A stretch of DNA of 64,000 bases, taken from the NCBI RefSeq assembly GCF_041248615.1, contig NZ_CP158426.1; one strand, 5' to 3'. Every line of letters starts with the position of its first letter. Position 1 is the stretch's first letter. The stretch is from Escherichia coli (GTDB lineage: Bacteria; Pseudomonadota; Gammaproteobacteria; Enterobacterales; Enterobacteriaceae). Shown one piece after another: positions 57,001 to 60,000 of the stretch. The position numbers were made by a program.

Positions 57001-60000
57001 TAATTGAGATGGATGGTTTTCTGAAAGGTAAATGCATCCCAAGTGATTTAAAGGTTAACGAAACAAACGCTGAATATCTGGTGCGTAAATTTGCTGAAGC
57101 GGAGGCCAAGTGCGCGGCGCTGGCAGCGGAGAATGCGGGGCTGAAGTCTGGCGCTATGGGCGAAATCAAGGTTATCAACCGTGGAGGGCAGGCATATTGC
57201 GTAAAAGATGGAGTGCAAGTTAATCCCATGTATGCAAGAGGGTGGAATGACTATCGCGCAAAGTCTCTGCAATCAGACACCCAAGCCACCGATGCTTTCC
57301 TGGCTGAAGTACGGGCGCAGGGCGTGGAGATGTTTGCTGAGTGCGCATACACACTTGAACATCATGATCACGCAGTAGCCTTCGCCGCTGAGCTTCGCAA
57401 AGGAGGCAACCAGTGAGTGTAACGGTTGAAAAGATTGATGTGTTGTCATTCGTTATAACCGGTGCAGAGCGACTAGATCCGGTTCGAGTGATGATTGAAA
57501 ACTACGAACCTGGTAAGGGAAGAATCACCATCACCTGCTACGGAAAGGCGTGGACTGCGGCTTGGTTTGCTATGGGCGGTGATGATGTGCAGACGTTCAT
57601 TAAGCGGGTCAGCAACGAGTATCTAATCGGCTATTTCGACCCACAACTGCGAAGCACGGTCGACGATGACAACGATGCAAATCTGCTTTTCGTGAAGTCA
57701 GAAATCATAAAGTTACGAAGAGAGAGAGAAATAGACGCCGTACTGGCTCGCGAAATGTGGGACGAGGCGGAAAACGCCGATGACGTAAAAGAAAGCTGCT
57801 GCTGTTTCGGCGTCGGTAACAAACTACTGAATCTCTTTGGTGATGATCCGTGGTATGCCGACTGGCCAACGGTACCAAACCCGAAATACCAGTATCTGGA
57901 ACGCGTACTTAATGCAGTGAGAGACGGTCTTAAGCAAATAGAGAAGGTGGAACCATGACTGTATGTCTTATTGATAAACGTCGACGTGGGCAACAAATAC
58001 CATCTGTTGAAATGCCGAATCACACATGGTTTTGCGTACTTGATATCGATGGCATGGATAAGTTTGTTGACACTCGTCATTACTGCGATACCGCAACAGC
58101 TACTCCGGCGAAAGCAAAGAAAATGGCTGCTCTGATAGAAAACTGGACTCCACCTGATGGTTGGTGCAATGGGAATGATCGAGATTGGCACGAAAAAATG
58201 AAGGGCTATATCTGCGATTTTTTACGTAAATGCAACGGATTCAGGGTGATGTGACATGAGCAAGATTGACTATCAGGCACTGCGTGAAGCGGCAGAGCGT
58301 GCAATTCCGGCAATGGAACGCCTGTTAATGTTGCCAGCTGATGATGATTTGTTAAGTGAACAGGAACTTAAAGATTACGGTGTGGATATTGATGCGCTCA
58401 ACGCCTTCAAATTTCTGACCGGACCAGAAACCGTGCTGGCGCTGCTGGATGAACGGGAAAGAAACCAGCAATACATAAAACGCCGCGATCAGGAGAACGA
58501 GGATATTGCGCTAACGGTAGGGAAACTGCGTGTTGAGCTTGAGGAAGCAAAATCAAAACTCAACGAGCAACGCGAGTATTACGAAGGTGTTATCTCGGAT
58601 GGGAGTAAGCGTATTGCTGAACTGGAAGCACGGGAAATAAAACCAGCCAAAGGTGAAGTTCTTGTCGTTGTTTCTGGTTTTACTGGTTGCGGAAAAAGCG
58701 CCATTGCCGGGGAAATAGAAATCGCGATGAAGGCTATTGGTGTACCGGTTAAGTGGACTAATGGCGATGCAGAAAAGCGCATGACTGGCGCTGACTGGCT
58801 GACAGCGATTGAGATGTACAAACCAACTGTGCGCATCGTGGAAGTTAATGTGCCACGCGCCGCTGGCATTCGCATCAAAGGAGACTGATATGGATAAAAA
58901 CACCACTGCTTACTGGAATCTGTCACTTGATACCGAATGCCCAAAATGCGGTCACAATTTCGATCTGCTTTGCGATCCAGATTTCTGGGAATTTTCTGGA
59001 GCAAAACAGGCATGTGAAGAAATAAAAGGTTACGAAACATGCTGTCCAGAATGTAACCATGAATTTAAAACAGATTTTGTGTATTGAGGCATAACGAATG
59101 ACCACTTTTACTAAAGAACAATTAATAGAGATGATTAAGCGCAATATAACGGTTATGGATCGTTATCCTGATTTAGTAACTGCACAAATGGATCTGGAAG
59201 TATACAAAATTGCGCTGGCATCACTGGAAGCAGAACCAGTTGCTTATATTTTCAAACATCCGGCCGGGAAATTATTCTGGGCTTTAACGGATGAAAGCAA
59301 TAAAGAGCAACCGGACGTTATTCCTGTTTATGCTGACTCACCTGCGCCGGTTGTGCCGGATGAAATAGACGTAAACGATGTGCCAAGGGCGGTGACATAT
59401 TTCAAGACACACAGAGATTGTTACGCAGATGGCTGGAACGCCTGCCGCGCCGCCATGCTTCAGTCCGGAAACTTTCGGGAAAACAAGAATTCGTCAACCA
59501 ATAATTTTCGGGAAATCGCGGAAACGTCAACCAACTATCCGGTAATTCCTAGTGAGGTGTTGTCCGCAATCCAGAAGGTTGCCAAGATTCGTGCCGATTT
59601 CGATGATTTTGACGGTGACAGGCGAGGTATCGGTGATTGTCTGGATGAGGCTGAGCAAGAGCTTATCGTTACCATTAACAAATATGCCAGTCAGTTGGCA
59701 GCAGAACCTATAGCGCCTAATGACGTTCGAGAGCAGCAGACAGCCGTTCCGCCAGTTCCAGAAATACAGGCTGATGTCGCGCAAGCAATTGAAAATCTCA
59801 AGCAGAAGTTAGTGGAATGCAATCGCTATAACTACTGTGCAGATGCAGTTAAAGGCGTAGAGGATGCCTGCCGTGCTGTTAGCTATAGCCAAGCCGACAA
59901 TCAGCCAGCATCTGGCAACCAGGCTGCCGAATCCAATCGCGATAATGAGTGGACTGGCAATCCTGATATTGATAACGCCATCATCATGCTCGACCGCATA

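Follow-up and report, generated by a model that had tools for sequence, protein, structure and literature searches.

An intact accessory early gene of the lambdoid prophage at icd in Escherichia coli encodes a 210-aa protein of the Ead/Ea22 family, which ends in a portable domain built around a conserved Walker-A-type motif. In the reading that we prefer, and to which we give about an even chance, the product is a mosaic Ea22 protein whose oligomeric stalk displays this 'half P-loop' domain (hereafter the cassette), which would bind phosphate or nucleotide. The relevant features were located as follows in the window (the whole stretch of 64,000 nucleotides of contig NZ_CP158426.1 that was analysed).

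58256..58888, plus strand: ead/Ea22-like gene, a complete coding sequence of 210 aa plus TGA (from the ORF list and the sequence).
58259..58627, plus strand: Ead_Ea22 domain (Pfam PF13935), residues 2-124, covering the N-terminal segment and the central charged helical region.
58607..58651, plus strand: constant joint KRIAELEAREIKPAK, residues 118-132, between the variable stalk and the C-terminal cassette.
58652..58858, plus strand: portable 'half P-loop' domain of about 70 residues, residues 133-201, delimited from homologs, the family alignment and AF2 models.
58676..58699, plus strand: Walker-A-type motif GFTGCGKS, residues 141-148, kept in homologs and aligning with the Walker A motifs of CysC and GntK.
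58760..58777, plus strand: NGDAEK, residues 169-174, after strand 2, aligning to the APS kinase DGD turn.
58826..58855, plus strand: last strand TVRIVEVNVP, residues 191-200, with I194 and E196 invariant (columns I66 and E68 of the family alignment).
58859..58885, plus strand: variable Ea22-type tail AAGIRIKGD, whose last three residues, KGD, may be a variant of the '+GE' tripeptide.

The ORF starts with ATG and stops with TGA at 58886-58888, and its product is identical (100%) to WP_192459734.1 from NZ_LT599825.1, named 'ead/Ea22-like family protein' in RefSeq. There the identical gene is preceded by N, sieB, ral, kil, recT, gp157 and DUF7739 and followed by xis, int and icd. In the window, the gene lies between recT/gp157 and xis, all on the same strand, in the early-left (exo-xis-type) region of the prophage, and the prophage end follows beyond it with xis (60967-61203), int (61193-62335) and then icd. 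The first-pass annotation had described a 210-aa product with a Walker-A-like motif near its C-terminus, and this description is borne out: VLVVVSGFTGCGKSA occupies residues 135-149, of which GFTGCGKS takes up 141-148. Its count of about 60 residues after the motif, too few for a full NTPase, also holds: there are 62 residues after S148, and the cassette falls short of the complete alpha/beta/alpha core of three layers and five or more strands. A constant gene partner was sought in about 60 loci carrying the cassette and none was found, both flanks being variable. The PADLOC-DB defence profiles gave no significant match to the 210-aa protein or to five cassette-bearing relatives, and the lone match, at E 0.009 in one relative, fell on the P-loop region.

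The N-terminal two thirds of the protein belong to the Ead/Ea22 family, a membership that the first-pass annotation overlooked. The PF13935 match scores 130.4 bits (cut-off 27; E 9.2e-38), its residues 2-124 span the whole 139-position profile, and a charged helical segment at about residues 60-127 lies inside it. In Ea22 proteins the centre is described as a coiled coil (PMC7093339, PMC10834534), and a tetramerising one (PMC8614690, PMC10834534). By analogy with these relatives and from the Pfam match, we assign a probable coiled coil to the 210-aa protein as well; the coiled-coil-like region proposed earlier agrees with this assignment, although our own crude heptad scan did not separate such a segment from the remainder of the protein. 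Ea22 proteins end in a '+GE' tripeptide (PMC7093339), and close relatives that share this C-terminal domain have tails of the form IRIKGE, IRIKGGE, IKGDAGEQSDEKP or IKGEEHGNKTRR. The tail AAGIRIKGD is modelled with low pLDDT.

The mosaic character of these proteins was revealed by a scan of IMG/VR, in which 79 loci yielded 63 distinct proteins of 112-287 aa with shuffled N-terminal parts; the cassette copies in this set were only near-identical ones and added no divergence. Nearly all of the 63 mosaics meet at the joint KRIAELEAREIKPAK, directly before GEVLVVVSG, apart from one divergent frame upstream and variants that differ by a single residue.

The cassette is an autonomous, portable domain. 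Its layout comprises a strand, GxxGxGKS, a helix, a second strand, the [N/D]G[D/E]xEK turn, two short helices and a strand ending in IVExN, and its boundaries are constant whether it is placed at the C-terminus, at the N-terminus or internally (130, 11 and 6, respectively, among 148 representative clusters). Altogether, it was detected in 446 representative clusters (E<=1e-3), and only 17 of the 148 share the Ea22-type N-terminus. The proteins that carry it range from 110 to 623 aa, with near stand-alone forms of 87-89 aa, and belong to enterobacterial, Stenotrophomonas, Burkholderia and Ralstonia phages, including gp37 of Burkholderia phage BcepC6B and proteins of Ralstonia jumbo phages. In phage phiV10, the C-terminal domain is identical to the one studied here. 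In complete E. coli genomes, the class is present in 365 of 5426. A tblastn search with the C-terminal domain returned 27 phage records only, and no candidates emerged when the divergent Ralstonia copy was taken as the seed of a homology search. Pfam revealed no domain hinting at function on the fusion partners in other taxa, and neither DUF551 nor any other family on residues 125-210. No curated family in Pfam or NCBIfam covers the cassette, and PHROGs holds a functionless cluster for it. The automatic labels of cassette proteins are inconsistent ('ATP-binding protein', 'adenylylsulfate kinase-like enzyme', 'Ea22-like'), and a formal family definition would supersede them.

The cassette is strongly conserved. 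The pattern GxxxxGK[ST] has no significance as such in the window, where six-frame translation gave 6 occurrences against about 2 expected; it is the conservation in homologs that excludes a chance origin, with GxxGxGKS retained in 265 of 271 cassette copies. In an alignment of 23 non-redundant family sequences, which includes copies at 30-35% identity, the invariant residues are V137, G141, G144, G146, K147, S148, A149, G152, G162, W167, E173, I194 and E196; within NGDAEK, K174 is almost invariant as well. Two candidates for a Walker B element were noted: the turn [N/D]G[D/E] that follows strand 2, and E196 within RIVE. Our guess is that E196, which closes a hydrophobic strand, is a Walker-B-like acid; in a forced alignment, the corresponding strand of APS kinase does not end in an acid. 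The cassette is under strong purifying selection, with a dN/dS of 0.056 among close copies, and the residues that vary among these copies include none in the motif and none of the invariant acids.

Profile comparisons suggest that the cassette is equivalent to strands 1-3 of a P-loop kinase of the APS-kinase/gluconate-kinase type. Alignment of the family with E. coli CysC by hhalign gave a probability of 96.4% (E 1.3e-9) over 39 columns at 36% identity, from the first strand through Walker A and the helix to the second strand and DGD, with N169-G170-D171 paired with D63-G64-D65; the probability for GntK was 89.6%. Beyond about residue 110, CysC has no counterpart in the cassette in a forced alignment, and the second half of the kinase (strands 4-5, the LID and the base-binding loops), on which P-loop kinases depend to recognise the base and to catalyse, is not present. 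Among the 23 aligned members, 19 match APS_kinase, 22 match AAA_16 and 18 match AAA_18, all of these P-loop-family matches lying under the curated cut-offs and covering about 40 residues. For the protein studied here, PF01583 (APS_kinase) scores 16.1 bits with the isolated domain and 14.0 with the whole protein (cut-off 21.1), at profile positions 3-40 of 152. Profile matches of the family in the PDB are almost all to Walker A regions and include the designed phosphate-loop protein 6c2u (E 0.0087).

Structure prediction placed the motif at the junction of a strand and a helix, as a P-loop would be, but the overall predicted fold had no significant match to P-loop NTPases. The AF2 monomer of the cassette has a pLDDT of 86.8, although DSSP calls no strands in it, and Foldseek found no match for it in the PDB. 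A tandem model, of moderate confidence (pLDDT 70), contains in each half strands at domain residues 6-14, 37-39 and 63-71 and helices at 17-32, 42-49 and 53-60, and is compatible, at that confidence, with pairing of cassettes. For the Walker A site VLVVVSGFTGCGKSAIAGEIE, a strand is called at domain residues 6-14 in the tandem model, and a helix from domain residue 17-19 in both models. The earlier suggestion of a small nucleotide-binding module is supported at the level of sequence, by the invariant Walker A and acids and by the CysC alignment, while no match of the whole fold backs it.

We infer ligand binding, the need for oligomerisation and the biological role of the cassette protein from these data. 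The Ea22 N-terminal segment and the coiled-coil stalk would gather two to four cassettes, tetramers of the stalk being known from studied relatives. The Walker A nest (K147 and S148), together with the acids E173, E196 and usually D171, would then bind a phosphate-bearing ligand, for which nucleotide, polyphosphate, a nucleic-acid backbone and a phospho-protein are candidates; efficient phosphotransfer by the cassette is not expected. Through ligand binding, the protein may influence some process of the host or the phage soon after infection or induction, a role like that supposed for the other interchangeable Ea22 C-terminal domains. More tentatively, and with the balance somewhat against it, we propose that the cassette is a natural, self-folding 'half P-loop', selected as a free-standing phosphate or nucleotide binder that is active only when oligomerised by a scaffold, and that it serves as an exchangeable effector of temperate phages of Proteobacteria; nature would then have its own counterpart of the P-loop prototypes made in the laboratory.

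The alternative that survives best, which we nevertheless consider unlikely, is that the P-loop-like motif is an evolutionary relic in a module that has lost nucleotide or phosphate binding and serves as a structural domain, for dimerisation or for binding a protein. The conserved glycines, lysine and serine would then serve folding or contact with a protein partner. However, K147, S148 and two acids are invariant down to about 30% identity, as is typical where a ligand or metal is bound, rather than where residues are kept for packing, and the motif is free of substitutions at a dN/dS of 0.056. In addition, far smaller designed P-loop fragments do bind phospho-ligands (bioRxiv 10.1101/2020.07.30.228619).

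An improbable explanation is that the module imitates the first half of a P-loop enzyme of the host, either APS-kinase-like or a dimerising ATPase of the SIMIBI type, and acts through an exposed sheet edge as a dominant-negative or decoy subunit, that is, as an anti-host or anti-defence effector on the Ea22 scaffold. The 36% identity to CysC across 39 columns speaks for such mimicry, as does the sheet edge that a three-stranded unit should, to judge from the models, leave unsatisfied; according to a preprint (10.64898/2026.07.10.737580), an anti-immunity domain can be borne by the Ea22 scaffold, and hotspots in the recombination region contain anti-immunity genes. Yet the likeness to CysC is limited to generic elements of P-loop kinases, the conserved W167, E173, ADW and IVExN are all without a CysC counterpart, the module also occurs in phages of such distant hosts as Ralstonia and Burkholderia, and PADLOC gave no matches.

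Finally, the possibility of a truncated fusion, raised in the first-pass annotation and here taken as a truncated or frameshifted remnant of a full NTPase gene fused to a coiled-coil protein, might appeal to the mere 62 residues after the motif and to the mosaic, often decayed state of prophage early regions, but we reject it as very improbable, since hundreds of proteins share the end point of the cassette (including N-terminal and internal copies that precede unrelated sequence), no homolog among the matches listed runs on into a complete NTPase domain, the cassette is under purifying selection (dN/dS 0.056), and the next ORF (58890..59087), where a continuation might have been sought, lies in another frame one base past the stop and encodes an unrelated 65-aa CxxC protein, found in 1 of the roughly 60 loci.

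The consequences are twofold. The cassette adds a fifth and widespread class of C-terminal domain to the mosaic Ea22 proteins, and the first with a recognisable ligand-binding motif, so that K147, S148 and E196 provide a concrete handle on how this family acts in the lysis-lysogeny decision. If the cassette is an independent 70-residue fragment of a P-loop kinase, it also offers a natural test of whether the strand-(P-loop)-helix core can function without the rest of the NTPase.

The Ea22 family itself is already known, and the class that bears the cassette has not been described in the Ea22 literature; a search for papers linking Ea22 with the P-loop found none of relevance. Ea22 proteins form tetramers with dimeric and interchangeable C-terminal domains (PMC10834534), and lambda ea22 is dispensable for lytic growth, with its mechanism not known (PMC10695390, PMC10834534). 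With lambda Ea22 and the Shiga-toxin phage variants V1, V2 and V3 (PF13935; PMC10834534, PMC7093339), the protein shares its place ahead of xis and int in the early-left operon and the mosaic design with an exchangeable C-terminal domain; its tail, KGD in this case and KGE in close relatives, may be of the '+GE' kind. In contrast, its C-terminal domain is of another class: in our tblastn, Pfam and PDB searches, the cassette showed no similarity to the four published ones (lambda type, V1, V2/DUF551 and V3), for none of which a conserved Walker A has been reported. Among the 27 phage records returned by tblastn with this domain, there was no lambda, 933W, Sakai, phi24B or P27, and a sequence search of the PDB returned no Ea22 chain.

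With the DxD-turn P-loop kinases CysC and GntK, the cassette is collinear over strand 1, GxxGxGKS, helix 1, strand 2 and the [D/N]G[D/E] turn, and its helix ADWLTAL aligns, at low confidence, with KPWLQAL of GntK. It differs from them in size (about 70 residues against 175-201) and in its own invariant residues W167, E173 and E196. The dimerising P-loop NTPases of the SIMIBI class (SRP54/FtsY, MinD/ParA, Get3/ArsA, Cfd1/Nbp35 and BioD) are also among the closest known systems. The designed P-loop prototypes (PDB 6c2u/6c2v; Vyas et al., bioRxiv 10.1101/2020.07.30.228619) resemble the cassette as very small strand-(P-loop)-helix units in which the rest of the NTPase fold is missing, and such designed peptides of 40 residues bind NTPs, polyphosphate and ssDNA as oligomers only (bioRxiv 10.1101/2020.07.30.228619). 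Whereas the prototypes are laboratory constructs derived from ancestral inference, the cassette occurs in nature, is kept under purifying selection, and has an additional strand-helix-strand and a putative binding function.

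The open reading frame reported by the first-pass annotation was recovered as described at 58256..58888 (+), with an ATG start, 210 codons and a TGA stop. Residues 135-149 of the 210-aa product read VLVVVSGFTGCGKSA and include the Walker-A-type octet GFTGCGKS, C-terminal of which 62 residues remain. The gene belongs to a lambdoid prophage inserted beside icd within the window, in the following setting.

Upstream, + strand: Gp157-family gene and DUF7739 gene
54826..55737, + strand: recT, upstream
58676-58699, + strand: octet GFTGCGKS, residues 141-148
Downstream, + strand: DUF551, ASCH and DUF4222 genes
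60967..61203, + strand: xis, downstream
61193..62335, + strand: int, downstream
62449..63699, minus strand (opposite to the ea22-like gene): icd, after int

One-base gaps separate the upstream stop from the ea22-like start and the ea22-like stop from the next start, a tightly packed, operon-like arrangement. The integrase directly adjoins icd (61193..63699), the classic region in which several lambdoid and e14-type elements of E. coli attach; though ordinary, this position defines where the prophage ends and which way the operon runs.

The coiled-coil protein of the earlier description belongs to the known Ea22 family: Pfam Ead_Ea22 (PF13935) matches residues 2-124 (E 9e-38, 130 bits against a cut-off of 27), and the question lies in the C-terminal ~85 residues. 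The family call is ordinary, since a RefSeq gene of 100% identical DNA is already annotated as ‘ead/Ea22-like family protein’. Ea22 proteins combine a short N-terminal part, a central tetramerising coiled coil and a dimeric C-terminal domain (CTD); their genes belong to those transcribed first, are pro-lysogenic and are mosaic, with CTDs wholly different between lambda and the Shiga-toxin-phage variants V1, V2 (DUF551) and V3 (PMC10834534, PMC7093339, PMC8614690). Lambda ea22 is not needed for lytic growth (PMC10695390). In several IMG/VR loci (L009-L088) the gene immediately upstream of the one bearing the CTD is also Ea22-like (for example MARMTIDYQALREAA..., 198 aa), and such tandem paralogs with different C-termini agree with reports of several Ea22 variants per genome. 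Within the window, an uninterrupted 395-aa ORF (59098..60285, +) ends in ~60 residues matching Pfam DUF551 (E 1e-10), known from the literature as the V2 CTD; its counterpart in the reference genome, where the adjacent ea22-like gene shows 100% identity, is annotated by PGAP only as a pseudogene fragment plus a 56-aa hypothetical protein.

The C-terminal module, residues 133-201, is an autonomous, portable domain and not a truncation. Pfam and NCBIfam hold no family on residues 125-210, where P-loop families match only below threshold, and PHROGs places the protein with families of unknown function. An exhaustive search of the 87 C-terminal residues against 1.84 billion representatives returned 446 clusters at E<=1e-3, including 351 at <=1e-10; the matched stretch always spans approximately residues 8-80 of the query, in proteins of 110-623 aa. 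Of 148 representatives in which the domain is nearly complete, 130 carry it at the C-terminus, 11 at the N-terminus and 6 internally, and the Ea22-type N-terminus of the protein studied here recurs in only 17. Near stand-alone proteins of 87-89 aa also occur (for example P0297, MEHEYKRGEVLVTVSGLTGSGKSA...). The domain is N-terminal in gp37 of Burkholderia phage BcepC6B (199 aa), whose gene adjoins an exonuclease and a methyltransferase; in Ralstonia/Burkholderia jumbo phages it lies in the middle of 347-380 aa proteins, where the family alignment gives 30-35% identity, and in a Stenotrophomonas prophage its gene lies between repressor and integrase. The fusion partners carry no Pfam domains. 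In the S. maltophilia prophage (CP031058.1; locus L007, 4622..10232), within a region flanked by a CI-like repressor and the integrase, the module is at the N-terminus of a 453-aa protein encoded directly after a set (Lcl_C-domain protein, bAvd, reverse transcriptase) that by appearance is a diversity-generating retroelement, and a DNA methylase follows.

At closer range, 79 IMG/VR contigs whose CTD shows 95% identity or more encode 63 distinct proteins of 112-287 aa, which differ by shuffling, insertion or deletion of N-terminal and coiled-coil parts. The junction KRIAELEAREIKPAK|GEVLVVVSG is common to nearly all 63 proteins, single-residue variants and one divergent upstream frame being the only departures, and the tails after the domain differ (IRIKGE, IRIKGGE, IKGDAGEQSDEKP, IKGEEHGNKTRR). 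The CTD DNA occurs in 365 of 5426 complete E. coli genomes, some copies being on phage-plasmids, and the full-length combination in 48.

Six GxxxxGK[ST] matches were found in the six-frame translation of the window, against ~2 expected from composition; the bare pattern is thus unremarkable alone, and its significance must rest on homologs, as it does. Besides the octet, two of these matches lie in long open frames: the one at ~13774 (+), within 282 aa, seems to be part of a genuine ABC-type ATPase, and GQVAYGKS at ~44177 (+), within 380 aa, probably arose by chance. GxxxxGKS is retained in 265 of 271 domain copies, the rest being single-residue variants in small clusters or partial matches. 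In the alignment of 23 non-redundant domains, which reaches down to 30-35% identity, V137, G141, G144, G146, K147, S148, A149, G152, G162, W167, E173, I194 and E196 are invariant, and the nearly invariant columns include T143, K174, D180, W181, P190 and N198. The enterobacterial CTD, compared across 40 distinct DNA variants, has a mean dN/dS of 0.056; third codon positions hold 24 of the 36 variable sites, and none of the nine variable amino-acid positions falls in the motif, E173 or E196. The Walker-A-type motif is under selection.

AlphaFold2 modelled the domain confidently from the 23-sequence alignment (pLDDT 86.8, pTM 0.73), with helices at domain residues 19-32, 42-49 and 53-60 and no strands called by DSSP. 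In a linker-joined tandem model with paired alignment (pLDDT 70.3, pTM 0.73), each half has strands at 6-14, 37-39 and 63-71 and helices at 17-32, 42-49 and 53-60. The predicted helix begins at GKS, in P-loop fashion. Because the modelled local context is strand-loop-helix, the motif is not buried in a non-P-loop context, the outcome that would have counted against the first-pass reading; a whole P-loop fold was not confirmed. Foldseek gave no match for the predicted domain, and the tandem model matches generic alpha/beta sheets only, with no whole-fold match to P-loop NTPases. An alternative reading, a relic motif within a purely structural or protein-binding domain, is rather unlikely.

Kinship with P-loop kinases was detected at the profile level. 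Scanned one by one against Pfam, the 23 members match only P-loop families (APS_kinase 19/23, best E 4e-5; AAA_16 22/23; AAA_18 18/23), all below cut-off and limited to about the first 40 positions of the profile. Searching PDB sequences with the family profile returned almost exclusively Walker A regions at marginal E-values, including the designed ‘phosphate-loop protein’ 6c2u (E 0.0087), gluconate kinase and APS kinases. The family profile aligns by hhalign with E. coli CysC (96.4% probability, E 1.3e-9, 39 columns, 36% identity) and with GntK (89.6% probability, 26 columns); VLVVVSGFTGCGKSAIAGEIEIAMKAIGVPVKWTNGDAE pairs with a 39-residue CysC segment, which puts N169-G170-D171 on the DGD turn. 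Variovorax phage VarioGold has, among its early genes and not far (a few genes) from an Ead/Ea22-like one, VG_p38, whose 98-aa product is annotated ‘AAA+-type ATPase / P-loop ATPase family’ (PMC9658991) and may likewise be a miniature P-loop protein.

We propose that the Ea22 stalk would present two to four copies of this half-P-loop cassette, which may bind a phosphate-bearing ligand via K147, S148 and the invariant acids. Lacking the half responsible for catalysis and base binding, it would not work efficiently as a kinase or NTPase; in P-loop kinases this part comprises strands 4-5, the LID with catalytic arginines and the adenine-binding loop. Designed 40-residue P-loop prototypes bind NTPs, polyphosphate and ssDNA, only as oligomers (bioRxiv 10.1101/2020.07.30.228619), a precedent suggesting that minimal P-loop units can work. 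In biological terms the protein is probably an accessory early factor that acts on either the host or the balance between lysis and lysogeny. According to a preprint (10.64898/2026.07.10.737580), an anti-immunity domain can be borne by Ea22 scaffolds, and the genomic region is a hotspot of such genes; for the module, we found no conserved neighbour gene and no defence-system match. That the module acts as a decoy of a host P-loop enzyme is improbable.

A truncated gene or fusion, as the first-pass annotation had suggested, is very improbable and was rejected, since the next ORF lies in another frame and encodes an unrelated 65-aa CxxC protein, and no homolog among the top matches listed continues into a full NTPase. 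That neighbour (58890..59087, +; ATG one base after the ea22-like stop) is zinc-ribbon-like, with two CPxC pairs and a weak sub-threshold Rad50 zinc-hook match (E 4.5e-4); found in 1 of ~60 related viral loci, it does not accompany the module as a conserved partner.

We found no account of an Ea22 CTD class other than the four already published, no paper that connects Ea22 to P-loops, and no description of a portable, free-standing ~70-residue fragment of the P-loop kinase fold, which has no curated family. Conservation of the fragment extends over phages of Gamma- and Betaproteobacteria, and automatic annotation now and then calls it ‘ATP-binding protein’ or ‘adenylylsulfate kinase-like enzyme’. 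In a forced longer alignment, the module is collinear with the first 90-100 residues of CysC and GntK, the GntK segment KPWLQAL lining up with ADWLTAL at a per-column confidence near zero, and the second half of both kinases has no counterpart. A PDB sequence search returned no Ea22 chain, and tblastn with the CTD matched only 27 phage records; phiV10, D6, JL22 and O157 typing phages 9 and 10 are among these, whereas lambda, 933W, Sakai, phi24B and P27 are all absent. The CTD studied here belongs to none of the lambda, V1, V2 and V3 classes.
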